From sequence record PZ452591.1: a DNA stretch of 64,000 bases; one strand, 5' to 3'. The stretch is from a phage. How positions within the stretch are numbered: position 1 is the first letter of the stretch; the number at the start of each line of letters is the position of its first letter. This document shows positions 3,501 to 62,001 of this stretch, piece after piece. The notes beneath the pieces are model-generated. The model searched no databases. It was not told the origin of the DNA and saw nothing but the letters and a program-made list of their open reading frames with translations. The position numbers and the translations under genes were made by a program.

Positions 3501-4021
3501 GTTGATCCCAGCTCCTTACTTTCAACGTTTTTAACTAATTTGACAGAAACTAATTCAGCATCTTGAGTAATCATTACCGGACCTTCTTCATACTCTTCAA
3601 GATATTCTAGAGCTTTCTTTTTAGCTTCTTCCTTCGTATCAGTTTGAGCATAGATATAAAACATACAACCAGTAATACCTACTACTTTCCACTTAATTTC
3701 TTTATCAGTTTTAATTTCAAATTTACTGACAGAATCATCTTTTTGAACTTCTTCGAAAAAAGAATATTCTAACATATAAGCAATTGAAAATAACGGGCTA
3801 TCTTTATAGCATTCACCCATTACATCAACAGCTTTATACCAGCAGTCATCAATTTCGCGTTTAATGCTAATAACATTTTTCGCAAGATCTATTTTTACTT
3901 TAAATGAATTTTCCCCAATAAACTGGGCAATTCGTTTATTAGCCCCGCAAGTTTCATTAAAAATATCTTTATACCCAGTTTTAAAGCGATAAACCTTATC
4001 TTCTTCAAACCATTCGCTCAT
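3491..4021 (-). CDS. hypothetical protein, 176 aa
   Basis: ORF track; ATG at 4019-4021. Confidence 0.6.
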   Translation of the reverse strand: MSEWFEEDKVYRFKTGYKDIFNETCGANKRIAQFIGENSFKVKIDLAKNVISIKREIDDCWYKAVDVMGECYKDSPLFSIAYMLEYSFFEEVQKDDSVSKFEIKTDKEIKWKVVGITGCMFYIYAQTDTKEEAKKKALEYLEEYEEGPVMITQDAELVSVKLVKNVESKELGSTCC

Positions 4022-13617: not shown

Positions 13618-13662
13618 TTAGTACCTTATATAAATTATAATACATTTTATGAAGCTAAATAA

Positions 13663-14010
13663 TCAATACGGTTTAGCATCAAATTTTCTCTCAATTTCAG
13701 GCGTGAAATATAATTCTTTACCGCGTTTGGAAAAGCGACCAATAATATGATAATTATTCTCATCAAACGTAATATTACCAATATCCATAGCTTTCAACCA
13801 AATATCGATATTTCTATCCAGCTTTATGTCAAAATTCCAATACGGAGAACTATTACCGAAAATACTGCAAGCGGATTCAGTGAAACAGCTACTATAAATC
13901 TTGTCTTTAGGAACTACTAATTGATAGACACCTTTAATAAACTGAGGACCCTGCCACTTTGGCTGTTTCGCGTCTTCTTCTAATAGAATAGGGTAATAAT
14001 TAAAATTCAT
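13663..14010 (-). CDS. hypothetical protein, about 115 aa, between frd and td
   Basis: in-frame ATG at 14008-14010; fills the space between frd stop (14031) and td start (13617). Confidence 0.5.
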   Translation of the reverse strand: MNFNYYPILLEEDAKQPKWQGPQFIKGVYQLVVPKDKIYSSCFTESACSIFGNSSPYWNFDIKLDRNIDIWLKAMDIGNITFDENNYHIIGRFSKRGKELYFTPEIERKFDAKPY

Positions 14011-14030
14011 ATTTTCCGTCACGCGTTATT

Positions 14031-20066: not shown

Positions 20067-20074
20067 TATAAATA
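20067..20074 (+). promoter_or_regulatory. late promoter TATAAATA upstream of gene 34
   Basis: exact octamer about 35 nt upstream of the gene 34 ATG; GGGAG Shine-Dalgarno at 20103-20107. Confidence 0.6.
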
Positions 20075-20108: not shown

Positions 20109-23100
20109 ATGGCCGAGATTAAAAGAAAGTTCAGAGCAGAAGATGGTCTGGACGCAGGTGGCGATAAAATAATCAACGTAGCTTTAGCTGATCGTACCGT
20201 AGGAACTGACGGTGTTAACGTTGATTACTTAATTCAAGAAAACACAGTTCAGCAATATGATCCAACTCGTGGATATTTAAAAGATTTTGTAATCATTTAT
20301 AATAATCGTTTTTGGGCAGCAGCGGATAATATTCCAAAACCTGCTGGAAATTTTAATAGAATTCGTTGGAAAGCATTACGTACTGATGCCGTATATACAA
20401 CCGTATCATCTGGACCATATCAATTAAAATCCGGAGAAGCAATTTCAGTAGATACATCAGTTGGCAATGACATTGAGTTTACTTTACCACCTTCTCCGCT
20501 TGATGGAGAAACCGTAATAATTCAAGATATCGGTGGAAAACCTGGCATAAATCAGGTTAAAATAAATTCTTCAAATCAGAGTATTGTCAATTTTAGAGGT
20601 GAACAGGTACGTTCAGTTTTAATGACTCATCCAAAGTCACAGATGGTATTCATTTTTAATAATCGTTTGTGGCAAATGTATATTGCTGATTATAGCAGAG
20701 AAGCTGCGATTGTTACTCCATCGACTGCATATCAAGCACAATCTAATGATTTTATCGTACGTAGATTTACTTCTGCCGCACCGATTAATGTTAAGCTTCC
20801 AAGATTTGCCAATCATGGAGATATCATTAATTTCGTTGATTTAGATAAATTAAATCCACTTTATCATACAATTGTTACGACATATGATGAAACAACGTCA
20901 GTGCAAGAAGTTGGAACTCATTCCATTGAAGGCCGTACATCGATTGACGGTTTCTTGATGTTTGATGATAATGAGAAATTGTGGAGATTGTTTGACGGGG
21001 ATAGTAAAGCACGTTTACGCATTATAACAACTAATTCTAATATTCGTCCAAATGAAGAAGTTATGGTATTTGGCGCGAATAATGGAACAACCCAAACAAT
21101 TGAACTTCAGCTTCCGACTGATATTTCTGTTGGTGATACTGTTAAAATTTCCATGAATTACATGAGAAAAGGACAAACAGTTAAAATCAAAGCTGCCGGT
21201 GAAGATAAAATTGCTTCTTCAGTTCAATTGCTACAATTCCCAAAACGTTCAGAATATCCGCCTGAAGCTGAATGGGTAACAGTTCAAGAATTAGTTTTTA
21301 ATGGTGAAACTAATTATGTACCAGTTTTGCAACTTGCTTATATAGAAGATTCTGATGGAAAATACTGGGTTGTACAGCAAAACGTTCCAACAGTTGAAAG
21401 AGTCGATTCTTTAAATAATTCTACTAGAGCAAGATTAGGCGTAATTGCTTTAGCTACACAAGCTCAAGCAAATGCTGATTTAGAAAATTCTCCGCAAAAA
21501 GAATTGGCAATTACTCCAGAAACGTTAGCTAATCGTACTGCTACTGAAACTCGCAGAGGTATTGCAAGAATAGCAACTACTGCTCAAGTAAATCAGAACA
21601 CCACATTCTCTTTTGCAGATGACCTTATCATCACTCCTAAAAAGCTGAATGAAAGAACTGCTACAGAAACTCGTAGAGGTGTCGCTGAAATTGCTACGCA
21701 GCAGGAAACTAATACAGGTACTGATGATACTACAATCATCACTCCTAAAAAGCTTCAAGCTCGTCAAGGTTCTGAATCATTATCTGGTATTGTAACTTTT
21801 GTATCTACCGCAGGAGCTACTCCAGCTTCTAGTCGTGAATTAAATGGTACGAATGTTTATAATAAAAACACTAATAATTTAGTTGTTTCACCTAAAGCTT
21901 TGGATCAGTATAAAGCTACTCCAACGCAACAAGGCGCAGTAATTTTAGCAGTTGAAAGTGAAGTAATTGCTGGACAAAGCCAAGAAGGATGGGCAAATGC
22001 GGTTGTAACGCCAGAAACGTTACATAAAAAGACATCAACTGATGCAAGAATTGGTTTAATTGAAATTGCTACACAAAGTGAAGTTAATACAGGAACTGAT
22101 TATACTCGTGCAGTCACTCCTAAAACTTTAAATGACCGTAGAGCAACTGAAAGTTTAAGTGGTATAGCTGAAATTGCTACACAGGTTGAATTCGACGCAG
22201 GCGTCGACGATACTCGTATCTCTACACCATTAAAAATTAAAACCAGATTTAATAGTACTGATCGTACTTCTGTTGTTGCTCTATCTGGATTAGTTGAATC
22301 AGGAACTCTCTGGGACCATTATACCCTTAATATTCTTGAAGCAAATGAGACACAGCGTGGTACACTTCGTGTAGCTACACAAGTTGAAGCTGCTGCAGGA
22401 ACATTAGATAATGTTTTAATAACTCCTAAAAAGCTTTTAGGTACTAAATCTACTGAAGCACAGGAAGGTGTCATTAAAGTTGCAACTCAGTCTGAAACTG
22501 TGGCTGGAACGTCAGCAAATACTGCTGTATCTCCAAAAAATTTAAAATGGATTGTGCAGAGTGAACCTACTTGGGCAGCTACTACTGCAATAAGAGGTTT
22601 TGTTAAAACTTCATCTGGTTCAATTACATTCGTTGGTAATGATACGGTAGGTTCAACACAGCCATTAGAATCATATGAGAAAAATGGTTATGCAGTATCA
22701 CCATATGAATTAAATCGCGTATTAGCAAATTATTTGCCATTAAAAGCAAAAGCTGTAGATAGTAATTTATTAGATGGTCTAGATTCGCTCCAGTTCATTC
22801 GTAGGGACATTGCACAAACAGTTAATGGTTCACTAACCTTAACCCAACAAACGAATCTGAGTGCCCCTCTTGTATCATCTAGTACTGCTACATTCGGTGG
22901 ATCAGTTTCAGCAAATAGTACATTAACTATTTCTAATACTGGAACGGCAACTCGTCTGATTTTTGAGAAAGGACCTCAAACTGGAACAAACCCAGCTCAA
23001 ACGATGACAGTCAGAGTGTGGGGAAATCAATTTAGTGGGGAATCAGACACAACACGTTCTACCGTATTTGAAGTTAGTGATGAAACGTCTAGTCATTTTT

Positions 23101-23978
23101 ATTCTCAGCGTAATAAAGCTGGAAATATAACATTTAATATCAACGGTACAGTAACACCGATAAATGTTAATGCTTCAGGAACATTGAATGCAAATGGTGT
23201 AGCAACATTTGGTAATTCAGTCACTGCAACTGGTGAAATTATTTCTCGAAGCGCAAATGCTTTCCGTGCTATTAGCGGAAATTATGGTTTCATTGTTCGC
23301 AATGACGGGTCAGTAACGAATTTTATGCTTACTGCATCGGGTGATCAGACTGGCGGATTTAATGGATTGCGTCCTTTAGCTATTAATAATGCATCTGGCC
23401 AAGTAACGATTGGTGAAAGCTTAATCATTGCAAAAGGTGCTACTATAAGTTCGGGTGGTTTGACTGTTAACTCGAGAATTCGTTCTCAGGGTACTAAAAC
23501 CTCTGATTTATATACCCGTGCGCCAACATCTGATACAGTAGGATTCTGGTCAATCGATATTAATGATTCAGCCACTTATAACCAGTTCCCGGGTTATTTT
23601 AAAATGGTTGAAAAAACTAATGAAGTGACTGGACTTCCATACTTAGAACGTGGTGAAGAAGTTAAATCTCCTGGTACATTGACTCAGTTTGGTAACACAC
23701 TTGATTCACTTTACCAAGATTGGATTACTTATCCAACGACCCCAGAAGCACGTACCACTCGCTGGACACGTACATGGCAGAAAACCAAAAACTCTTGGTC
23801 AAGTTTTGTTCAGGTATTTGACGGAGGTAACCCTCCTCAACCTTCAGATATAGGAGCGATCCCATCTGATAATGGAATAATAGGTAATCTTACTATTCGC
23901 GATTTCTTGCGAATTGGTAATGTTCGCATTATTCCTGACCCAGTGAATAAAACTGTTAAATTTGAGTGGATTGAATAA
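20109..23978 (+). CDS. 34: long tail fiber proximal subunit gp34, 1289 aa
   Basis: ATG at 20109; length equals T4 gp34; internal repeats of about 39 aa. Confidence 0.93.
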   Translation: MAEIKRKFRAEDGLDAGGDKIINVALADRTVGTDGVNVDYLIQENTVQQYDPTRGYLKDFVIIYNNRFWAAADNIPKPAGNFNRIRWKALRTDAVYTTVSSGPYQLKSGEAISVDTSVGNDIEFTLPPSPLDGETVIIQDIGGKPGINQVKINSSNQSIVNFRGEQVRSVLMTHPKSQMVFIFNNRLWQMYIADYSREAAIVTPSTAYQAQSNDFIVRRFTSAAPINVKLPRFANHGDIINFVDLDKLNPLYHTIVTTYDETTSVQEVGTHSIEGRTSIDGFLMFDDNEKLWRLFDGDSKARLRIITTNSNIRPNEEVMVFGANNGTTQTIELQLPTDISVGDTVKISMNYMRKGQTVKIKAAGEDKIASSVQLLQFPKRSEYPPEAEWVTVQELVFNGETNYVPVLQLAYIEDSDGKYWVVQQNVPTVERVDSLNNSTRARLGVIALATQAQANADLENSPQKELAITPETLANRTATETRRGIARIATTAQVNQNTTFSFADDLIITPKKLNERTATETRRGVAEIATQQETNTGTDDTTIITPKKLQARQGSESLSGIVTFVSTAGATPASSRELNGTNVYNKNTNNLVVSPKALDQYKATPTQQGAVILAVESEVIAGQSQEGWANAVVTPETLHKKTSTDARIGLIEIATQSEVNTGTDYTRAVTPKTLNDRRATESLSGIAEIATQVEFDAGVDDTRISTPLKIKTRFNSTDRTSVVALSGLVESGTLWDHYTLNILEANETQRGTLRVATQVEAAAGTLDNVLITPKKLLGTKSTEAQEGVIKVATQSETVAGTSANTAVSPKNLKWIVQSEPTWAATTAIRGFVKTSSGSITFVGNDTVGSTQPLESYEKNGYAVSPYELNRVLANYLPLKAKAVDSNLLDGLDSLQFIRRDIAQTVNGSLTLTQQTNLSAPLVSSSTATFGGSVSANSTLTISNTGTATRLIFEKGPQTGTNPAQTMTVRVWGNQFSGESDTTRSTVFEVSDETSSHFYSQRNKAGNITFNINGTVTPINVNASGTLNANGVATFGNSVTATGEIISRSANAFRAISGNYGFIVRNDGSVTNFMLTASGDQTGGFNGLRPLAINNASGQVTIGESLIIAKGATISSGGLTVNSRIRSQGTKTSDLYTRAPTSDTVGFWSIDINDSATYNQFPGYFKMVEKTNEVTGLPYLERGEEVKSPGTLTQFGNTLDSLYQDWITYPTTPEARTTRWTRTWQKTKNSWSSFVQVFDGGNPPQPSDIGAIPSDNGIIGNLTIRDFLRIGNVRIIPDPVNKTVKFEWIE

Positions 23979-23986
23979 GAGGTATT

Positions 23987-25102
23987 ATGGAAAAATTTAT
24001 GGCAGAGTTTGGACAAGGATATGTCCAAACGCCATTTTTATCGGAAAGCAATTCAGTAAGATATAAAATAAGCATAGCGGGTTCTTGCCCGCTTTCTACT
24101 GCGGGACCATATGTTAAATTTCAGGATAATCCCGTTGGAAATCAAACATTTAGTGCAGGTCTTCATTTAAGAGTTTTTGACCCTTCTACGGGAGCATTAG
24201 TTGATAGCAAGTCATATGCTTTTTCTGCTTCAAACAATACAACATCTGCCGCTTTTGTCAGTTTCATGAATTCTTTGTCAAACAATAGACTTGTTGCTAT
24301 ATTAACTAGCGGAAAGGTTAATTTTCCTCCTGAAGTGGTATCTTGGTTAAGGGGAGCAGGAACTTCAGTTTTTCCATCAGATTCAGTATTGTCAAGATTT
24401 GACGTGTCATATGCTGCTTTTTATACTTCTTCTAAAAGAGCTATTGCATTAGAGCATGTTAAACTAAGTAATAGAAAAAGCACAGATGATTATCAAACTA
24501 TTTTAGATGTTGTATTTGATAGTTTAGAAGACGTCGGAGCTACAGGATTTCCTAAAAGAACATACGAAAGCGTTGAGCAATTTATGTCTGCGGTTGGAGG
24601 AACTAATAATGAAATTGCGCGATTGCCAACTTCAGCTGCTATAAGTAAACTTTCTGACTACAATTTAATTCCTGGTGATGTTCTTTATCTTAAAGCACAA
24701 CTATATGCTGATGCTGATTTACTTGATCTTGGAACTACAAATATATCTATTCGTTTTTATGATGCATCAAATGGATATATTTCCTCGACCCAAGCTGAGT
24801 TTACTGGGCAAGCTGGGTCTTGGGAATTAAAAGAAGATTATGTAGTTGTTCCTGAAAATGCAGTAGGATTTACGATATATGCACAAAGAACTGCCCAAGC
24901 AGGTCAAGGCGGCATGAGAAATTTAAGCTTTTCTGAAGTATCAAGAAATGGCGGCATTTCAAAACCTGCCGAATTTGGCGTCAACGGTATTCGCGTTAAT
25001 TATGTCTGCGAATCGGCTTCACCTCCAGATATAATGGTACTTCCTACACAAGCCTCTTCTAAAACTGGCAAAGTGTTTGGGCAAGAATTTAGAGAAGTTT
25101 AA
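23987..25102 (+). CDS. 35: long tail fiber hinge protein gp35, 371 aa
   Basis: ATG at 23987; synteny 34-35-36-37. Confidence 0.88.
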   Translation: MEKFMAEFGQGYVQTPFLSESNSVRYKISIAGSCPLSTAGPYVKFQDNPVGNQTFSAGLHLRVFDPSTGALVDSKSYAFSASNNTTSAAFVSFMNSLSNNRLVAILTSGKVNFPPEVVSWLRGAGTSVFPSDSVLSRFDVSYAAFYTSSKRAIALEHVKLSNRKSTDDYQTILDVVFDSLEDVGATGFPKRTYESVEQFMSAVGGTNNEIARLPTSAAISKLSDYNLIPGDVLYLKAQLYADADLLDLGTTNISIRFYDASNGYISSTQAEFTGQAGSWELKEDYVVVPENAVGFTIYAQRTAQAGQGGMRNLSFSEVSRNGGISKPAEFGVNGIRVNYVCESASPPDIMVLPTQASSKTGKVFGQEFREV

Positions 25103-25107
25103 ACTGA

Positions 25108-25130
25108 GGGAGCCTTCGGGTTCCCTTTTT
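25108..25130 (+). terminator. intrinsic terminator after gene 35
   Basis: GGGAGCC-UUCG-GGUUCCC hairpin (one G-U pair) followed by UUUUU. Confidence 0.65.
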
Positions 25131-25133
25131 CTT

Positions 25134-25141
25134 TATAAATA
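25134..25141 (+). promoter_or_regulatory. late promoter TATAAATA upstream of gene 36
   Basis: exact octamer about 24 nt upstream of the gene 36 ATG. Confidence 0.6.
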
Positions 25142-25164
25142 ATATTAAAATAAAGGGGCATATA

Positions 25165-25815
25165 ATGGCTGATTTAAAAGTAGGTTCAACTGTAGGTGGA
25201 TCTGTCATTTGGCATCAAGGAAATTTTCCATTGAATTCAGCCGGTGACGATGTACTCTACAAATCATTTAAAATATATTCAGAATATAATAAACCGCAGG
25301 CAGCTGATAACGATTTCGTTTCTAAAGCTAATGGTGGTACTTACACCGGTCCAATTACTATTAATTACGGGGTAAATAGTTATCTTCAATTAAGTAATAA
25401 TGAAACCCCCATTCGAATTCGTTCTGGTGGCGGTACCGGTAATACTCTTGTAGTTGGTGGCTCTTCCGGCGGTATTAGTTTTAGACCTGCAGGTAGTGAA
25501 ATCACTACTGGACAAATTACTATTACACCAGAAGGTTTGACAACATTTACCAGGGCTGTAACGGCTCCATCGGTAACTGTTACATCTACTCCTTCCGCAG
25601 CATCTGATGTTACTCGTAAAGATTATGTTGATGGAGCAATAAATACTGTTACAGCAAATGCAAACTCTAGGGTATTACGCTCTGGAGACACTATGACAGG
25701 AAATTTAACTGCGCCAAACCTTTTTTCACAGAATCCTGCATCTCAACCTTCACACGTTCCACGATTTGACCAAATCGTAATTAAGGATTCTGTTCAAGAT
25801 TTCGGCTATTATTAA
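25165..25815 (+). CDS. 36: long tail fiber distal connector gp36, 216 aa
   Basis: ATG at 25165; synteny. Confidence 0.88.
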
Positions 25816-25823
25816 GAGGACTT

Positions 25824-28808
25824 ATGGCTACTTTAAAACAAATACAATTTAAAAGAAGCAAAACTGCAGGTCAACTTCCTGCTGCTTCAGTATTAGCCGA
25901 AGGTGAATTGGCTATTAATTTAAAAGATAAAACAATTTTCACAAAAGATGACTCAGGCAATGTTATAGAATTAGGTTTAAAATATGGAGGAACAATTGAT
26001 GGTTCTTTAACTGTTAATGGAAATATAATTGGAAATTTAACAGGTAACGCTGCAACTGCAACGAAATTAAAAACAGCACGAAAAATTAATGGTATATCCT
26101 TTGATGGGTCAAAAGATATCACGCTAACTCCATCTGACATAAATGTCAATAGCACAACGTTTATAAAAAATAATGGCGAATTACCTGTTGATGCTAATTT
26201 AGATACGTATGGGCCTGTTGAAGAATATCTTGGAGTTTGGTCGAAAGCAACTTCAACCAACGCTCAACCAGCAAATAAATTTCCAGAAGAAAATGCTGTA
26301 GGTGTGCTAGAAGTATTTGTGGCCGGTCAATTTGCTGGTACTCAGAGATATACAACTAGATACGGAAATGTTTATATTCGTTCCTTGACTGCTACATGGA
26401 ACGGAGTAAATGGTCCGTGGAGTGTGTGGCGAAATATTCAATCCGGTACTCGTCCACTGTCAACAACAATTGATCTTAATGATCTAGGAGGCGCTGAACA
26501 CTTTGGTTTGTGGCGAAATAGTTCAAATTCCATTGCTACCTTTGACAGAAATTTCCCAGAAGAGGGGTCGTCAGCTCAAGGTCTTTTGGAAGTATATGAA
26601 GGTGGAAACTATTCTCGTACACAAAGATATACAACCAGATTTGGTGTTGTATATACTCGTTGTCTTGCTGCCGCGTGGGATGCTTCCGCGCCTAAATGGG
26701 GACCGTGGCAACAAGTCGGTAATGTCACACCAGCGACTTTCTATGACGGAGATCTGAATGATTTTAAAACCCCTGGGTTATATAATATTTTAGGCACTGA
26801 TGCCGTTATTAACTGTCCTACAGGTGAAGGTTTGCCGACTGTTATTGTTGGTTTGCTGGAAGTTAAACAACGTGCTTCTGGCGGTGCTATTTTCCAAAAA
26901 TTTACTACTGCCGGAACGGGTGCAACTACTCGCGATCGTATTTTTGAGCGTGCATATACTGGTGGTGTGTGGGGTGCATGGAACGAAGTATATACATCTT
27001 ACTCTCTGCCAATTACTTTAGGTATGGGTGGTATTAAAACTCAATTAGCGGAGCTAGATTGGCAAACATTTGATTTTGTTCCTGGTAGTATGTTTAGCGT
27101 TCCTTTGAACAAAATAAAGAACATGCCAGCTAATATGAATTGGGGCACGATTGACGGAAACTTAATTATGTTTTCTGTTGGTCCTAGCGAGCACACCAGC
27201 ACAGGACGTACTGTTCAGGTTTGGCGTGGAACTGTATCCCAGACAAACTATCGTTATTTTGTCGTTCGTGTGTTCGGTAATTCTGGAAATAGAACTTGCA
27301 CAGTTCGCCGTGTTGTTCTTGAAGACGGATCACATACTTGGACTGCTAAACAAGATTTTAATGGCGCAGTTAACTTCGGTGCTCCTACCAATTTTAACTC
27401 TACTGTTAACCTTAATAACACTACCACATTTAAAACAGAAGTTAAATTTCGCTCATTGAATGCATTCCGTATGTATGGCGGAAAATTTGGTACATTTTTA
27501 CGTAATGATGGAGAGAGTCTTTATATTCTTTCCACCGACGAAGATGATCAAGATGGAAACTTTAATACAAATAGACCTTTCCGTTATGAATTAAGAACTG
27601 GTGATGTTACTTTGGGTGGTGCTAGTGGTGCTAACGTTTTAAAATTAAAACGTGATTCTCTCACCGCATTTTTTGGCGGTGATATTAACATTAAAGGCAC
27701 GATGACTTTTGACGCCGGACGTTTAGGATCACGAGATTATTTTAAATTTAACCATTGGGGTGATAGTAATAATGCGCGTGATAACATTATTCAGTTAGAA
27801 GACAGCAAAGGCGCTCATTTTTCCACTGAACGTACTTTAGCGACTGGTGCAATTAAGACTAAATTTTTTGGTGAAATTGAATCCGATGGTAAATTGGTTA
27901 TTAAACGTCCGGGTGATTCTATTGTATTATCAACAACTGCTAGTAATTCTTTGCATATTCGTGGTGACATAGACGGGACTGGTAACTGGTATATTGGTAA
28001 GGGTGGTGCTGATAATGGATTAGCGTTATATAGTTATGCTACTAATGCTGGTGTATACATTACAAACGCAGGAGATATCACGCTAAGTCCAAAAGGCGTC
28101 GAAATGGCCCATGTCAATAACGTTCGATTATATGTTCATGGTGAACGTTGGACTGCTAGTCAACCAGGTGATTGGGGTAGTCAGTGGCAAGTGGAAGCGC
28201 CAATATTCGTCGATCATGGTTATGTTTCACAGGATTGTTATTATCCAATTATTAAAGGAAGAAGTGTAATCACCAATCAAGGGTTTGTAACTGCCGTCGA
28301 TCTTGGTATTCGTCGTGTCAATAACAATTGGGGACAAGCAATTATTCGTGTTGGATCTGCGGAGGCATCGCCAGCGGCTGGACACCCTAACGCGGTATTT
28401 GAATTTCATTACGACGGTACTTTCTATTCTCCTGGTAATGGTAACTTTAACGATGTGTATATTCGTTCCGATGGTCGTCTTAAGATTAATAAAAAAGAGC
28501 TAGAAAACGGAGCACTTGAAAAAGTATGCCGACTGAAAGTTTATACATACGATAAGGTTAAGTCTATTAAAGATCGTAGTGTTATTAAACGTGAAGTTGG
28601 TATTATTGCTCAGGATCTTGAAAAAGAATTACCGGAAGCTGTGTCTAAAGTTGAAGTTGATGGATCTGATGTTCTGACAATTTCTAACTCTGCTGTGAAT
28701 GCTCTTTTAATTAAGGCTATTCAGGAAATGAGTGAAGAAATTAAAGAATTGAAAACGCCTCTCTTTACTAAAATTGCTCGCAAAATTAGTAAATATTTTA
28801 AATTCTAA
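25824..28808 (+). CDS. 37: long tail fiber distal subunit gp37, 994 aa, with C-terminal intramolecular chaperone-like domain
   Basis: ATG at 25824; conserved N-terminus; C-terminal about 110 aa resembles a tail-fiber/endosialidase-type self-cleaving chaperone domain. Confidence 0.9.
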
Positions 28809-28814
28809 CAACAA

Positions 28815-28832
28815 GGGGGAAATGCCCCCTTT
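28815..28832 (+). terminator. hairpin GGGGG-AAAUG-CCCCC with short U-run after gene 37
   Basis: 5-bp G/C stem directly after the gene 37 stop. Confidence 0.45.
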
Positions 28833-28844
28833 GGAGTATAAATT

Positions 28845-29636
28845 ATGGCAGTAGTTGGAGTTCCTGGCTGGATTGGAAGTTCAGCCGCAAATGAAACAGG
28901 ACAACGCTGGATGAGTCAAGCGGCTGGTCAATTAAGATTGGGTGTTCCTTGCTGGATGAGTCAATTTGCAGGTCGCTCACGAGAAATTATTCACACGCTT
29001 GGAGCAGACCATAACTTCAATGGTCAATGGTTCCGAGATAGATGTTTTGAGGCAGGTAGTGCACCTATAGTGTTTAATATTACAGGTGATTTAGTATCAT
29101 ATTCTAAAGATGTTCCTTTATTCTTCATGTACGGAGATACACCAAATGAATATGTTCAGTTAAATATACATGGCGTAACGATGTATGGTCGTGGAGGTAA
29201 TGGTGGTAGCAATAGTCCTGGCTCAGCTGGGGGTCATTGTATTCAAAATAATATTGGTGGGAGACTAAGAATTAATAATGGCGGAGCTATTGCTGGCGGC
29301 GGTGGCGGCGGTGGCGGCGGCTACTGGAATGCCGGTATAACGAGATATAGATCTGTTGTTGGTGGCGGTGGCGGACGTCCATTTGGGGCGGCTGGCGGGT
29401 ATTCTGGAGGATCAGCTTCTACCGCGGGCACTTTGACTGGGGCGGGCATTGGTTCTAAACCGGGAAATGCGATTTATGGTGGAAACGGAGGAAATGTGGG
29501 ATCTGCTGGTGGAGCTTGTGGCGGAATCTCAGGCTCTCGTTATGCTCGTTATGGTGGCGGCGCTGCTGGTTATGCTGTCATAGGGTCCGCTCCAACATGG
29601 CAAAATGTTGGAGCAATATATGGTCCAAGAGTATAA
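28845..29636 (+). CDS. 38: tail fiber tip adhesin gp38 (T2/T6-type, glycine-rich motifs), 263 aa
   Basis: ATG at 28845; several Gly-rich blocks ([59 protein letters not shown]) as in T2-type gp38 adhesins. Confidence 0.85.
29295..29321 (+). repeat. (GGC/GGT)9 trinucleotide tract encoding Gly9 inside gene 38
   Basis: ggcggcggtggcggcggtggcggcggc read directly from the sequence. Confidence 0.9.
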
Positions 29637-29666
29637 TGTGAATAAATACCCTTAAAAGGAGGGTCT

Positions 29667-30323
29667 ATGGCAGCACCTAGAATATCATTTTCGCCCTCTG
29701 ATATTCTATTTGGTGTTCTAGATCGCTTGTTCAAAGATAATGCTACCGGGAAAGTTCTTGCTTCCCGGGTAGCTGTCGTAATTCTTTTGTTTATAATGGC
29801 GATTGTATGGTATAGGGGAGATAGTTTCTTTGAGTACTATAAGCAATCAAAGTATGAAACATACAGCGAAATTATTGAAAAGGAAAGAAATGCACGCTTT
29901 GAATCTGTCGCCCTGGAACAACTCCAGATAGTTCATATATCATCTGAGGCAGACTTTAGTGCGGTGTATTCTTTCCGCCCTAAAAACTTAAACTATTTTG
30001 TTGATATTATAGCATATGAAGGAAGATTACCTTCAACAATAACTGAAAAATCACTTGGAGGATATCCTGTTGATAAAACTATGGATGAATACACAGTTCA
30101 TTTAAATGGACGTCATTATTATTCCAACTCAAAATTTGCTTTTTTACCAACTAAAAAGCCTACTCCCGAAATAAACTACATGTACAGTTGTCCATATTTT
30201 AATTTGGATAATATCTATGCTGGAACGATAACCATGTACTGGTATAGAAATGATCATATAAGTAATGACCGCCTTGAATCAATATGTGCTCAGGCGGCCA
30301 GAATATTAGGAAGGGCTAAATAA
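29667..30323 (+). CDS. t: holin T, 218 aa
   Basis: ATG at 29667; single N-terminal transmembrane segment and large periplasmic domain; matches recalled T4 T. Confidence 0.9.
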   Translation: MAAPRISFSPSDILFGVLDRLFKDNATGKVLASRVAVVILLFIMAIVWYRGDSFFEYYKQSKYETYSEIIEKERNARFESVALEQLQIVHISSEADFSAVYSFRPKNLNYFVDIIAYEGRLPSTITEKSLGGYPVDKTMDEYTVHLNGRHYYSNSKFAFLPTKKPTPEINYMYSCPYFNLDNIYAGTITMYWYRNDHISNDRLESICAQAARILGRAK

Positions 30324-30596
30324 TTATTTGTTCGTATACATTTCTAGATATCGATATACACCCTCAAAACCCTCGTTGAATTCATCGATGAGGGTTTTCT
30401 TATCTTCTTGAGTTAATTCAGAAACAATTTTACGGAATGAATTCTGATTTAACTTTCTACCTTCATGCGTTACTCCAATCTCATTTAGAAATGCAATAAA
30501 ATTAGCACGATTTTCGACAATATCTTCTCTAGAAAATTTAATCAAAATAGATGCAACAGTAATAATTTCACGAACTGTATCAATATTTTTATTCAT
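30324..30596 (-). CDS. asiA: anti-sigma70 factor AsiA, 90 aa
   Basis: ATG at 30594-30596; MNKNIDTVREIITVASILIKFSREDIVENRANFIAFLNEIGV... matches recalled T4 AsiA. Confidence 0.9.
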   Translation of the reverse strand: MNKNIDTVREIITVASILIKFSREDIVENRANFIAFLNEIGVTHEGRKLNQNSFRKIVSELTQEDKKTLIDEFNEGFEGVYRYLEMYTNK

Positions 30597-45137: not shown

Positions 45138-45680
45138 TTAATTCAAAATAGCTACCACTGCACTACGAGGTACTACGCTAAAATCACCTGCATGAACAAC
45201 GTTCAGAAGTTCAACACCATCTTCAATCCACTGGTCTGTTACCCAACCACAGACCGAAATAAATGGGGTCTTGATAGCTACTGCACGAGTCAAAAGGTCA
45301 GTAGGATCAACTTCTTGGAAGAGGATAATCTCTGCTTCAAAGACTATAGTTTTAATTACTTCATCATTATCTAAGCGATGTGCTCGAATCACGTAAGCTT
45401 TATTCTTATCATACCAATTACTTTTTGAAAAACTTTTAACCACAAACTCACCTTCACCAAAAACACTGGTCAATGCTTTATAACCCAAATCTAGTTCAGT
45501 AGTTTTAATTTCAGTTTCAACCAGTTTGTAGGTTTTGCCAGTTTCGATGGTCCGAGCAGTCATAAATGTTTCCTTAATTTCTAATGGTTTAACAAGAGTG
45601 CCGTACATGCTTGCTATATCCATATCAAACGGTTTATCTACAGGATTCGGTGTGTATTCAGGATTATAATTAAATTTCAT
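45138..45680 (-). CDS. MotB paralog, 180 aa
   Basis: ATG at 45678-45680; C-terminal ...TDQWIEDGVELLNVV... parallels MotB ...TDQWVEDGVKLYNAV... Confidence 0.55.
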   Translation of the reverse strand: MKFNYNPEYTPNPVDKPFDMDIASMYGTLVKPLEIKETFMTARTIETGKTYKLVETEIKTTELDLGYKALTSVFGEGEFVVKSFSKSNWYDKNKAYVIRAHRLDNDEVIKTIVFEAEIILFQEVDPTDLLTRAVAIKTPFISVCGWVTDQWIEDGVELLNVVHAGDFSVVPRSAVVAILN

Positions 45681-45682
45681 AA

Positions 45683-46195
45683 TTATCTCATTTCAATAAA
45701 ATCTACAAGTTCAGCATGGGATTTACGGAACATTACTTGATGCCCACCAATGATAACTTGGTCATCTGGCACTTCATAAATCGCAATGTACATTCCACGA
45801 TCTTTTAAGTCTTCACGCTCTTCTCGGGTGAACCATCTCATCATATCATATTCAGTAGCGAAAGCAAAATGATATAATGCAATAAACCACAATGGAATAT
45901 AATTTTCAATTCGTGAATAATCTTTATTCCATTTAGTTTTAATAGCATCATTAGCATTTTCAACTAATAACTTATCATCGTGCGGAATAGGAATACTTTC
46001 ATGACTTTCATAATTATCGCTATGATGATGAAATGACGATGAATTAATACCGCAAAATTTTAGCCAAGTTCGAGTTTTCATAGAATCAAATCCACGATAA
46101 GGAGTTGATTGAACGCATAACTCTTGCCTAATTTTCATTATACCACTATCATCATTTAATGCGCTAAACGATGATTCAACACGATAAATTTTCAT
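45683..46195 (-). CDS. hypothetical protein, about 170 aa
   Basis: in-frame ATG at 46193-46195; track ORF starts at upstream TTG. Confidence 0.5.
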   Translation of the reverse strand: MKIYRVESSFSALNDDSGIMKIRQELCVQSTPYRGFDSMKTRTWLKFCGINSSSFHHHSDNYESHESIPIPHDDKLLVENANDAIKTKWNKDYSRIENYIPLWFIALYHFAFATEYDMMRWFTREEREDLKDRGMYIAIYEVPDDQVIIGGHQVMFRKSHAELVDFIEMR

Positions 46196-59170: not shown

Positions 59171-60344
59171 TAAATTCTTCCATATCACTTAACTGTTCAA
59201 GGTCAGTTTCTAAATCAGCTGCTGATTTACTTTTACTTTCTGGAGATTTAAATTTTTCAACCTTTGAGTTAATCAATTCATCAACTTCAGCTTCAACAAT
59301 TTCATTACTATCAATAGCACCTAACTGATAAGCACGTTTAATAGCATCTCGGAATGGTTGATGCTTAAATAAAGGACCCCAGAATGTAGTGCAGTTAGTA
59401 TCTTTTGCACGCCAAGATTTTTCTTCGCGAATCATCTCGCCGGTTTCTTCATCAAGAAATTCACGAGCATACCAGCCATTTTTAGGTTTTACTACAAATC
59501 CTAATTCTAGAGCCATATCTAACAATCCAGAATAAGGATCGATACCACCGTCAAATTTAACATCAATAAAGAATTTACTTTTTTCTTTAACGGTACGAGA
59601 TTTTTCTACATTTAGAACAAATTGATACCCCTGAAGATCAGAACCATCTTTAATCTGACGCTTACCAATAATGAATACAGTATCAGCTGAATACATTACG
59701 CCTGTACCACCTGTCATCACGGTTTTACTAAACATTTCAATGGTTTCAATTGTATGGTTAACCGCAACACATGGAATATTTTTAATGCTAAAATAAGGAG
59801 TAACAATACGGAATAATGACTTCAGTGATTTAGCACGAGTCATATCTGCCACAGATTTTTCATTCAAGGCATCTTCCGTTTCTTTCTTGGAAGCCATATT
59901 ACCAATTGAGTCGATGAATACAATAACCTTTTCACCACGCTCAATAGCTTCAAGCTGATTCACCATATCAATTTTCAGTTGTTCAACTGACTGGATTGGT
60001 GTATGAATTACTCGTTCCGGGTCAACTCCCATGGATCGCAAATAAGCTGGAGTAATACCAAATTCGCTATCATAGAATAGACAAACCGCGTCAGGATATT
60101 TGTTTAAATATGCCGCAACCATAGTCAAAGACATATTTGATTTAAAGTGTTTAGAAGGACCTGCAAAAATGGTTAAACCAGACTGCATACCGCCATCAAT
60201 CGCGCCGGAAATAGCGATATTAAGCATTGGAATTTTTGTACGGATTACATCCTTTTCATTAAAGAATTTAGATGTAGTCAGTTCAGCAGTCATTTTAGAA
60301 GTGGAAGCTTTAATCAAACGGGATTTTAAATCTGCAATAGACAT
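59163..60344 (-). CDS. uvsX: UvsX recombinase (RecA homolog), 393 aa
   Basis: ATG at 60342-60344; Walker A GPSKHFKS; matches recalled T4 UvsX. Confidence 0.93.
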   Translation of the reverse strand: MSIADLKSRLIKASTSKMTAELTTSKFFNEKDVIRTKIPMLNIAISGAIDGGMQSGLTIFAGPSKHFKSNMSLTMVAAYLNKYPDAVCLFYDSEFGITPAYLRSMGVDPERVIHTPIQSVEQLKIDMVNQLEAIERGEKVIVFIDSIGNMASKKETEDALNEKSVADMTRAKSLKSLFRIVTPYFSIKNIPCVAVNHTIETIEMFSKTVMTGGTGVMYSADTVFIIGKRQIKDGSDLQGYQFVLNVEKSRTVKEKSKFFIDVKFDGGIDPYSGLLDMALELGFVVKPKNGWYAREFLDEETGEMIREEKSWRAKDTNCTTFWGPLFKHQPFRDAIKRAYQLGAIDSNEIVEAEVDELINSKVEKFKSPESKSKSAADLETDLEQLSDMEEFNE

Positions 60345-60421
60345 TCATTTTTTCCATAGGCATCATTATATTTTCCTCACTGGTTAAAGATAGAGTAATT
60401 ATAACACAATAAATTTAGGCA

Positions 60422-61264
60422 TTAATCAACTGCTATTGGATGAATAGCATTAAACTTATGAAATGCTTCTGATTTTTCTTTACGCGAAACGCACATGCGA
60501 AGAACCTTTAGTGGTTCATCTTCTTCACCCAACGATTTTCGTTTTTCAATATTCGATGTTTTCCAACGAGCTTGCTCTGGAAACTCTCTATTGATTTGCT
60601 CAAGCGCTCTATTATGTTTAGAATTACTACGAATTGAACTACACCCACCAGGAGCGTGTGATTTTCCAGATACAACTAGATATTTGAACAAGGCCAAATG
60701 CGGATAACCTTGATTAATTAAATTGAGAAATGCATACATATCTTCACATAAATCAATTTTTCCATACCCAATTTGTTCTGTCGTAAGTTTTCCGAGGTCA
60801 TACCATGTATTCGTGAATCCATATGAGTTTTCACGATAATTACCCCAAGATGAAGTAATTTTAAAAATTGGTAGACGAGCATGACCGTGATAATACCCGC
60901 AATCCATAGCATCCTCAACGTATTGAATTAATTCATAGAACTGTTCACGAGTTAATTGATTAATTTTATCTACGCGCCGTTTATCGTCTCTCTTTCGTAT
61001 TGAACTCATACGAATAGTAGTATCATCGTCAATCATCCAGATTCGTTGACCTGCATACATATCAGTAATTGCTTTACGAGTACCGGCAATTCCATTAACA
61101 TCATCAGGAATAGTTACAATTTTAGCTCTAGACCCATAAGCATCATAATAAGCTTTTTCTTCGTGTTCACGTACTACAATATGTGGTTCATAATCAGTCG
61201 GAAACATATCAAGGGCAGAAACTGCCCCTACACGTTGATAGCTTGGAATTACGAATTGAATCAT
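60422..61264 (-). CDS. GT-A-fold glycosyltransferase (DxD motif), about 280 aa, at the uvsX-42 locus; candidate DNA hydroxymethylcytosine glucosyltransferase
   Basis: in-frame ATG at 61262-61264 overlapping gene 42 stop as ATGA; WMIDDDTT motif; occupies the T4 beta-gt position but is shorter. Confidence 0.6.
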   Translation of the reverse strand: MIQFVIPSYQRVGAVSALDMFPTDYEPHIVVREHEEKAYYDAYGSRAKIVTIPDDVNGIAGTRKAITDMYAGQRIWMIDDDTTIRMSSIRKRDDKRRVDKINQLTREQFYELIQYVEDAMDCGYYHGHARLPIFKITSSWGNYRENSYGFTNTWYDLGKLTTEQIGYGKIDLCEDMYAFLNLINQGYPHLALFKYLVVSGKSHAPGGCSSIRSNSKHNRALEQINREFPEQARWKTSNIEKRKSLGEEDEPLKVLRMCVSRKEKSEAFHKFNAIHPIAVD

Positions 61265-62001
61265 TTCCACTCACCGTTATAATCTTTTTTCACAATATGA
61301 GTTTCGCCAGTATTCCACCAATGATCAACCAAGTAAAAATGACGAGAATATACATGAAGACTTCCAACATTCCATATAATAGAACCTGCTTTATACTGAC
61401 GAGTTGAATCGCCTGCATTCAAATCAGATACTAATTTATCTAATACGTATTTTTGCCATGCATAATCATTACGGAATCCGAAGACCACGTCATTTGAGCG
61501 CATGTTAACAACCGCATTGATTTTCTTGTCACGAATTAAGTATTGTACTGTATTCGTACACATGAAATCTGACATACCATCTTTATTGTAGTCAAATTGC
61601 ATAGATGGACGAGTATAAATCATGATACCACGTCGAGAATCAGGATTTTGACCAAGTTCAGCTAAACACATATCATACTGGGCATAGTTATCTTCTGACC
61701 AGATAGCCCAACCATAATTCGAGTTAATTTCACCTTTAGAAGATGCTACTTGTTGCCAAATCTTCGGTGTTTCACCCGGAATATCTTTAACGAACAAGCT
61801 CTTAGATTTATACCATTCAAGTTCACGCTGAATGTATTCATCATTAAGAGCGCCAAAAATAAACGGTTCATCTGCTACAAATGATGCGCCAATAATTTCA
61901 ATAGTTTTAACGCCAGTTTTATCAACTACGAAATCTTTTTCCTTTAATGCAAGCCCCAAATGAAGACGGATTTCTTCAACTGTCATAGAGTCACTAATCA
62001 T
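61261..62001 (-). CDS. 42: dCMP hydroxymethylase gp42, 246 aa
   Basis: ATG at 61999-62001; thymidylate-synthase-like fold; matches recalled T4 gp42. Confidence 0.93.
   Translation of the reverse strand: MISDSMTVEEIRLHLGLALKEKDFVVDKTGVKTIEIIGASFVADEPFIFGALNDEYIQRELEWYKSKSLFVKDIPGETPKIWQQVASSKGEINSNYGWAIWSEDNYAQYDMCLAELGQNPDSRRGIMIYTRPSMQFDYNKDGMSDFMCTNTVQYLIRDKKINAVVNMRSNDVVFGFRNDYAWQKYVLDKLVSDLNAGDSTRQYKAGSIIWNVGSLHVYSRHFYLVDHWWNTGETHIVKKDYNGEWK

Follow-up and report, generated by a model that had tools for sequence, protein, structure and literature searches.

RESULTS

The g37-g38 locus

The element described here occupies positions 25,824-29,636 of a 64,000-nucleotide (nt) stretch of phage DNA (sequence record PZ452591.1), which is referred to below, at its full length, as the window. 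It consists of two open reading frames (ORFs), g37 and g38, encoding gp37 (994 amino acids, aa), the precursor of the distal subunit of the long tail fiber, and gp38 (263 aa), the tail-fiber tip adhesin. Both ORFs have exactly the lengths and boundaries given in an initial annotation, which had been made from the sequence alone and had taken them for a receptor-recognition module of the T2/T6 type. ORF and Pfam analyses placed g38 directly 3′ of a g37 gene ending in a C-terminal intramolecular chaperone domain, with the holin gene t downstream, and the order g34-g35-g36-g37-g38-t is the canonical T-even long-tail-fiber order, as in the T4 record. An exact look-up showed gp38 to be 100% identical to the tail fiber adhesin of phage Mi (AET36511.1; Trojet et al. 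2011). Coordinates of all features are collected in Table 1.

gp38 belongs to the tip-adhesin family

Two Pfam families were recognised in gp38, PF21721 (Gp38_N; aa 1-42, 71.9 bits) and PF05268 (GP38; aa 47-263, 230.1 bits), each against a cutoff of 25 bits, and the protein also matched phrog_2056 (E = 7e-105). A phmmer search of the PDB returned the receptor-binding domain of PP01 gp38 (9v85, E = 3e-78) and S16 gp38 (6f45_D, E = 1e-48). The AlphaFold2 model, built from 50 homologs, had a predicted local distance difference test (pLDDT) score of 89.1 and a predicted template modelling (pTM) score of 0.81. When this model was compared with the PDB by Foldseek, just three chains were returned at E <= 0.001 (9v85_C, 9v85_A and 6f45_D), all of them gp38 adhesins, and the target-normalised TM score was 0.83-0.84 for 9v85_C and 6f45_D. 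As judged from the model, gp38 is predicted to have the beta-helix plus polyglycine-II sandwich fold. A BLASTP comparison with T4 gp38 (183 aa) gave E = 1.7 over 12 residues as its best result, that is, no similarity. Both the family and structure matches and this negative result agree with the initial assignment of gp38 to the adhesin type rather than to the assembly chaperones of the T4 type.

Of the 263 residues, 67 are glycines, and 54 of these glycines lie in the stretch 113-263. In the conservation profile across the 50 homologs, conserved glycine-rich stretches alternated with variable stretches at aa 122-128, 160-171, 185-198, 204-212 and 224-236. Trojet 2011 (PMC3157838) described five conserved glycine-rich motifs in gp38, between which four hypervariable segments (HVSs) lie, and crystal structures of gp38 contain ten polyglycine-II helices with five distal loops; the variable stretches found here correspond to Trojet's four HVSs and to loops A-E of PP01. 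The alternation of glycine-rich and variable parts noted in the initial annotation was thus recovered, but not its count of four glycine-rich blocks, because there are five such motifs and four is the number of HVSs. Loops C and D were 100% identical to those of M1 and UAB_60 and 22-33% identical to those of T6.

The three tryptophans of the N-terminal attachment domain were well conserved, W9 and W22 being invariant in the 50 homologs and W37 being present in at least 70% of them and invariant in six close relatives. The authors of the S16 structure (6F45; Dunne et al. 2018) described tryptophans docked into pockets, a gp38 monomer placed on a trimer and the polyglycine-II sandwich.

A 303-aa ORF on a 25.7-kb contig labelled as E. 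coli combined PF13884, the family of the gp37 C-terminal domain described below, with PF21721 and PF05268, and has the appearance of a fusion of the gp37 C-terminus to gp38. Either the two genes are truly fused there, or the ORF results from a frameshift or from an assembly error.

gp37 ends in an intramolecular chaperone domain

The initial annotation had described a C-terminal domain of roughly 110 aa resembling the self-cleaving chaperones of tail fibers. The sequence it quoted is present, and the domain comprises S882-F994, or 113 aa. PF13884 (Peptidase_S74, 'chaperone of endosialidase') matched aa 882-940, scoring 45.4 bits where 22 is the cutoff, and the match covered positions 1-57 of the 58-position profile. 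The AlphaFold2 model of residues 882-994 had per-10-residue pLDDT values mostly of 83-95, with lower values at the extreme C-terminus. In a Foldseek search of the PDB, the top match was the MyRF ICA domain (7dc3; E = 1e-4, prob 1.0), and weaker matches were obtained to the chaperone domain of the T5 L-shaped fiber (4uw8, E = 0.016) and to that of endosialidase (3gud, E = 0.052; 3gw6, E 0.05-0.15), with prob ranging over 0.69-1.0 for the matches to this domain. The predicted fold of residues 882-994 matches solved intramolecular chaperones, in line with the resemblance originally proposed. The C-terminal region of gp37 also aligned to the S16 gp37 chain (deposited sequence 6f45_A).

In S16, an intramolecular chaperone made up of the last 113 residues of gp37 is released by autocleavage at DLNVS^SDRRIKK, and this site was aligned to DVYIR^SDGRLKI of Tequatrovirus gp37 homologs (Salem 2021, PMC7917993). 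Exactly this published motif is present in gp37, and self-cleavage is therefore predicted between R881 and S882. Residues S882, D883 and K887 were invariant in an alignment of 45 homologs, which answers a check of cleavage-site conservation suggested in the initial annotation. K887 lies five residues past the cleavage-site serine; these two residues presumably form the Ser/Lys dyad of S74 cleavage, an assignment that follows MEROPS S74 and Schulz et al. 2010.

No trace of a T4-type receptor-binding tip was found in gp37: the protein has 0 HxH motifs, compared with 8 in T4 gp37 (7 of them in the tip), and its C-terminus did not align to the T4 tip (T4 residues ~880-1026). Together with the BLASTP result for gp38, these are the opposites of the two findings that the initial annotation had named as contrary to its reading.

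The remainder of gp37 forms the junction with gp36 and the shaft. Its N-terminus was 79% identical at the amino acid level to residues 1-66 of T4 gp37, and the only other similarity was weak, along the shaft. Three tandem repeats of ~85 aa share the motif G-x-LEV...Q-x-x-TT...W-x-x-W; compared with copy 1, copy 2 was 39% and copy 3 was 22% identical. A match to phrog_4618 ('tail collar fiber protein') was found at aa 106-325, and the repeats probably form globular knob domains on the distal half-fiber. Further along, aa 440-630, a region that includes a gp34-like domain, were also similar to the crystal structures of T4 gp34 (5nxf and 4uxe).

Module boundaries and mosaic structure

When the window was compared by blastn with 76 kb of syntenic T4 sequence, 88% of it was covered, mostly at 90-99% identity. 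The longest unmatched stretch was a cassette of 3,663 nt containing most of g37 and all of g38, whereas the next longest was 946 nt, as expected from the initial statement that this module is the part of the window most diverged from T4. The edges of the cassette were sharp, lying at gp37 codon ~52 and six nt past the gp38 stop codon. Other segments of at least 400 nt without a match in syntenic T4 were located at 3505-4018, 13621-14025, 45251-45694 and 60333-61278; these are presumably small differences in accessory genes or homing endonucleases.

The module is common, with matches in 656 phage records. The best matches (BW-1, GADU22, KK4 and L14) were 94-97% identical and were each split in two by a break within g38; among the whole-genome records of the phage collection, identity did not go beyond ~96-97%. 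In a sliding-window comparison, g37 was 94-100% identical to BW-1 and GADU22 at the nucleotide level in most 200-nt bins, and the N-terminal half of gp38 was common to many T6-like phages. With tblastn, only residues 1-132 of gp38 were aligned, its glycine-rich half being masked by the low-complexity filter; the variable half of g38 was compared by blastn of positions 29200-29636 and by our own alignments. This half was 95.9% identical to M1 (X05676) and 93% identical to the Salmonella phages Manna and UAB_60, but only ~76% identical to all other phages. Likewise, the bin 29301-29500, which covers HVS2-4, was 92-99% identical to M1, UAB_60 and Manna versus 64-66% to T6, BW-1 and GADU22.

Apart from M1 and Mi themselves, the closest relatives with respect to the M1/Mi loop set are UAB_60 and Manna, both isolated on Salmonella enterica. 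Manna carries this loop set with a different subtype of the gp38 N-terminus and with an unrelated, longer gp37; this shows that exchange of the loop set is not tied to the attachment domain. The module is one more clean case of mosaic exchange, with breaks at gp37 codon ~52, in g38 after HVS1 and just past the g38 stop codon.

Some database labels were unexpected for sequences of this kind. The g37-g38 region of OR584013.1 ('Pseudomonas phage PsgM02F') was 95.8% identical to this E. coli-type module, and a gp38 cluster of 155 members was labelled 'receptor-recognizing protein [Bacillus cereus]'. Such Bacillus cereus and Pseudomonas labels are likely to be host mislabels or to stem from T-even DNA contaminating bacterial assemblies.

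Receptor assignment and alternative readings

We consider it highly probable that the module is the distal receptor-recognition part of a Tequatrovirus (T-even) long tail fiber, with the architecture of T6 and S16 and an OmpA adhesin of the M1/Mi type. In spot tests on Keio deletion strains, adsorption of Mi to E. coli K-12 depended strongly on OmpA and less on the lipopolysaccharide (LPS) core; Mi did not recognise Tsx and also grew on Yersinia (Trojet 2011, PMC3157838). The same study cautioned that the LPS effects may be indirect, through the levels of outer-membrane proteins. For PP01, cross-linking and mutagenesis showed that distal loops D and E of gp38 contact the extracellular loops of the receptor, in that case OmpC (mBio 2026). 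The host-range role ascribed to the module in the initial annotation is supported by the published data on the identical Mi gp38, and OmpA dependence can be predicted for the phage of this window.

The proposed sequence of events is as follows. Late transcription would start from TATAAATA at 20067 and 25134, with g36, g37 and g38 probably forming one unit. gp37 would trimerise into a beta-helical fiber, its folding being nucleated by its own C-terminal S74 domain of 113 aa. This domain would then cut itself off between R881 and S882 by means of the putative Ser882/Lys887 dyad and dissociate, exposing a flat trimeric tip that ends in ...DVYIR. The N-terminal three-helix domain of one gp38 may then dock onto this tip, where three symmetry-related pockets would receive W9, W22 and W37; the gp37:gp38 stoichiometry would be 3:1. 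The beta-helix and the polyglycine-II sandwich of glycine-rich motifs would present five distal loops (four HVSs) to the cell surface, and these loops would bind OmpA.

Several points weigh against this reading. Self-cleavage and the 3:1 ratio are carried over from S16 and T2, and the gp37 tip upstream of the chaperone domain (residues 781-881), which would hold the gp38 docking surface, was modelled poorly as a monomer, with pLDDT <60. The motif TATAAATA did not occur above chance in the window (6 found versus 9.6 expected). OmpA dependence of Mi comes from the spot tests on Keio strains. In addition, gp37 is not proven to be the gp37 of Mi, since its exact sequence was absent from a collection of 15 billion proteins searched by exact look-up, and host range can also be influenced by other parts of the virion.

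Four other arrangements were weighed. In a T4-like arrangement, gp38 would be an assembly chaperone that is not retained on the fiber and the gp37 C-terminus would bind the receptor; some records do use the name 'distal long tail fiber assembly catalyst' for homologs of this gp38, an annotation carried over from T4. The absence of similarity to T4 gp38, of HxH motifs and of an alignment to the T4 tip, together with the membership of gp38 in a family of adhesins found bound at the fiber tip in crystals, refutes this arrangement at the level of sequence and fold, and we give it almost no credence. It is also very unlikely that the S74 domain is kept in the mature fiber as part of the tip, either uncleaved or cleaved but still associated. 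In favour of this reading, cleavage is a prediction for the gp37 studied here, and a basic, amphipathic-looking tail at the end of the domain, common to the closest homologs only, lies outside the alignment to the S16 chain, which ends at query residue 99 of 113. Set against these points are the strict conservation of the Ser and Lys dyad residues and of the cleavage motif, the long-established C-terminal processing of gp37 in T2 and T6 (Drexler 1986, as cited in Trojet 2011, PMC3157838), the autocleavage of the last 113 residues in S16 and the fact that the surface needed for gp38 docking is the one exposed by cleavage (PMC7917993).

The two remaining alternatives concern the receptor. Tsx would be suggested by the T6-like parts of the module, with loop A 100% and the N-terminal 112 aa of gp38 90% identical to T6 and ~90% nucleotide identity over the module. 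This assignment is contradicted by the published spot tests, in which Mi, with an identical gp38, 'does not recognize the Tsx receptor' (PMC3157838), and loops B-E were only 17-33% identical to those of T6; we regard Tsx as extremely unlikely. The LPS core, or LPS together with OmpA, would be the primary receptor if the loops contacted sugars, a mode of contact for which some host-range mutants of Ox2 and the Yersinia phage fPS-65 are precedents. Residues in loop B of PP01 gp38 may contact LPS sugars (mBio 2026), and the nearest HVS relatives, UAB_60 and Manna, come from Salmonella. Given the strong OmpA dependence and the possibly indirect LPS effects reported for Mi (PMC3157838), and a loop region only ~76% identical at the nucleotide level to that of fPS-65, a primary role of LPS seems unlikely.

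This is already known: the module is a textbook T-even system, and its architecture, assembly pathway, identical gp38 and receptor dependence have been published. The original observation was confirmed, and the interpretation placed on it is supported as right but not new. The practical value of the present analysis lies in annotation, in that a rare M1/Mi-type loop set is grafted here on a common T6-like scaffold. As the module decides which bacteria the phage can attach to, it is relevant to predicting host range and to the engineering of phages with altered specificity.

Tandem repeats in the receptor loops

The M1/Mi-type loop set was rare. It was found in about eight sequences, which formed one six-member cluster and two singletons among 179 significant gp38 cluster representatives; some of the clusters represented contain hundreds of sequences. 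To a large extent, the receptor loops of the eight sequences varied in the copy number of tandem repeats. The hexamer AGATAT in loop B, encoding Arg-Tyr, was present in one copy in six of the sequences, in two copies here (as in Mi; the second encodes Arg-Ser) and in three copies in M1. In loop E, the nonamer CTCGTTATG was duplicated (29536-29553) only here (as in Mi) among the eight.

The M1/Mi type looks like a third OmpA-associated loop set beside the two types reported in 2025, as far as loop sequences can tell. Short duplications are also known from the classical host-range mutants of K3 and Ox2. We can speculate that loop length is tuned by slippage: the repeats in loops B and E would be slippage hot spots by which phages of the M1/Mi type could change loop length rapidly, and the M1/Mi set would be a third, independently evolved solution to OmpA binding. 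We hold this combined proposal to be doubtful, with a modest chance of being right. If true, the repeats would adjust affinity for OmpA variants or widen the range to Yersinia, Salmonella or LPS, and a mechanism resembling that of contingency loci would operate in an adhesin gene.

Neighbouring genes and regulatory elements

The flanks of the module resemble T4. In blastn, nucleotide identity to T4 was 92% over 25001-25343 (from the end of gp35 to the start of g36) and 89% over 25586-25978, and beyond holin t the gene asiA lies on the opposite strand. The positions of TATAAATA upstream of g34 and g36 are suggestive of late promoters, and the copy at 25134 is likely to be the start of a g36-g37-g38(-t) late transcript. 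A terminator-like hairpin was seen at 25106-25127, between g35 and g36. The hairpin in the g37-g38 spacer folded at -14.8 kcal/mol with a weak z of -1.9; when evidence for a terminator was sought, only TTT was found to follow the hairpin.

Table 1. Features of the long-tail-fiber region, in order of position in the window (aa, amino acids; HVS, hypervariable segment)
Feature	Position	Strand	Description	Basis or remark
Second copy of TATAAATA	20067-20074	+	42 nt upstream of g34	
gp34	20109-23978		Upstream of g36-g37-g38	
gp35	23987-25102		Between gp34 and g36	
T4-type late promoter consensus TATAAATA	25134-25141	+	31 nt upstream of g36	Exact match; role inferred from position
g36	25165-25815	+	Hinge-distal connector of long tail fiber, 216 aa	ORF; Pfam Phage_T4_gp36
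g37	25824-28808	+	Long tail fiber distal subunit, 994-aa precursor	ORF; phrog_1699 'long tail fiber protein distal subunit', E = 7.6e-225, residues 1-989
gp37 N-terminus common to T4	25824-25978	+	~52 codons, gp36 junction	Nucleotide similarity to T4 stops at 25978
Replaced cassette	25979-29641	+	3,663 nt, gp37 from ~codon 52 to end and all of g38	No blastn match to syntenic T4
Three tandem ~85-aa shaft repeats	26187-26993	+	gp37 aa 122-205, 214-298, 307-390	Segment alignment
gp34-like trimerisation/shaft domain	27384-27584	+	gp37 aa 521-587	Pfam PF21446 Gp34_trimer, 48.5 bits
Predicted autoproteolytic site R881|S882	28464-28469	+	DVYIR^SDGRLKI	Motif starts at residue 877; cleavage inferred
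Intramolecular chaperone domain (Peptidase_S74)	28467-28805	+	gp37 aa 882-994, 113 aa	Pfam PF13884
GC-rich hairpin GGGGG-AAATG-CCCCC	28815-28830	+	In the 36-nt g37-g38 spacer	Followed by GGAG, ribosome-binding site of g38
g38	28845-29636	+	Tail-fiber tip adhesin, 263 aa	ORF, Pfam, exact look-up
gp38 N-terminal attachment domain	28845-28970	+	aa 1-42; tryptophans W9, W22, W37	PF21721
HVS1 / loop A	29208-29228	+	gp38 aa 122-128, SNSPGSA	Identical to T6; fits Trojet's 'T6-like HVS1'
HVS2 / loop B	29322-29357	+	gp38 aa 160-171	Tandem hexamers AGATAT-AGATCT at 29343-29354
HVS3 / loops C and D	29397-29480	+	gp38 aa 185-198, 204-212	Specific to M1/Mi type
HVS4 / loop E	29514-29552	+	gp38 aa 224-236	9-nt tandem duplication CTCGTTATG at 29536-29544, 29545-29553
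Holin t	29667-30323	+	Downstream neighbour of g38	PF11031, 390 bits; T4 nucleotide similarity resumes, 98% (blastn)

Comparison with known systems

The closest known relatives are M1 and Mi. Positions 28053-29769 were 98.8% identical to the whole 1,714-nt g37'-g38-t' record of M1 from 1987 (X05676; gp38 = P08234), a match that takes in the last 251 codons of g37. The locus has the chimeric design described by Trojet, a T6-like HVS1 combined with distinct HVS2-4, and the loop-by-loop identities agree with it. Relative to M1, there were six substitutions, loop B was shorter by one Arg-Tyr hexamer and had S169 where M1 has Y, residue 225 was C instead of F, and loop E had the extra 9-nt duplication (RYA).

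T6 has the same gene order, a gp37 of the same length (994 aa) and ~90% nucleotide identity across 25001-30400. The two modules diverge in gp38 loops B-E, and T6 uses Tsx whereas Mi does not (Trojet 2011, PMC3157838). A T2-type module was considered and rejected: T2 gp37 (1,341 aa) shares just the first ~150 nt of its gene, and T2 gp38 was 53% identical at the protein level. The T6 half of the initial 'T2/T6-type' label therefore stands and the T2 half, as far as sequence is concerned, does not. In T4, which has its corresponding genes at the same genome position, only the first ~52-66 residues of gp37 are common, with weak shaft similarity beyond them; gp38 is unrelated, the HxH iron-binding needle tip of gp37 has no equivalent here, and the cassette is devoid of nucleotide similarity.

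S16 (PDB 6F45; Dunne et al. 2018) has a gp38 with the same three parts, namely attachment helices with Trp prongs, a beta-helix and a polyglycine-II sandwich, and its gp37 likewise has a 113-residue chaperone domain, which in S16 is autocleaved. Its gp38 was 45% identical, its gp37 tip before the cleavage site was unrelated except for the last few residues, and S16 binds OmpC. The closest solved structure was that of PP01 gp38 (PDB 9V85; mBio 2026), with 63% identity, a target-normalised TM score of 0.84 and the same layout of loops A-E. In PP01, loops D and E bind the OmpC of E. coli O157; the loop sequences found here are different. The OmpA-binding gp38 proteins of 'type 1' (FL08 and AV119) and 'type 2' (FL18) (Npj Viruses 2025) belong to the same family and have the same reported receptor, but loop identity was 0-21% to type 1 and, in loops B-E, 8-40% to type 2.

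Beyond the T-even phages, the S74 domains of endosialidase, T5 pb1 and MyRF have in common with the gp37 domain the Pfam family, the conserved Ser with a Lys five residues downstream, and the fold, at 9-20% identity. In the gp37 described here, release of the chaperone would uncover a docking site for a separate adhesin instead of completing a self-sufficient tip.

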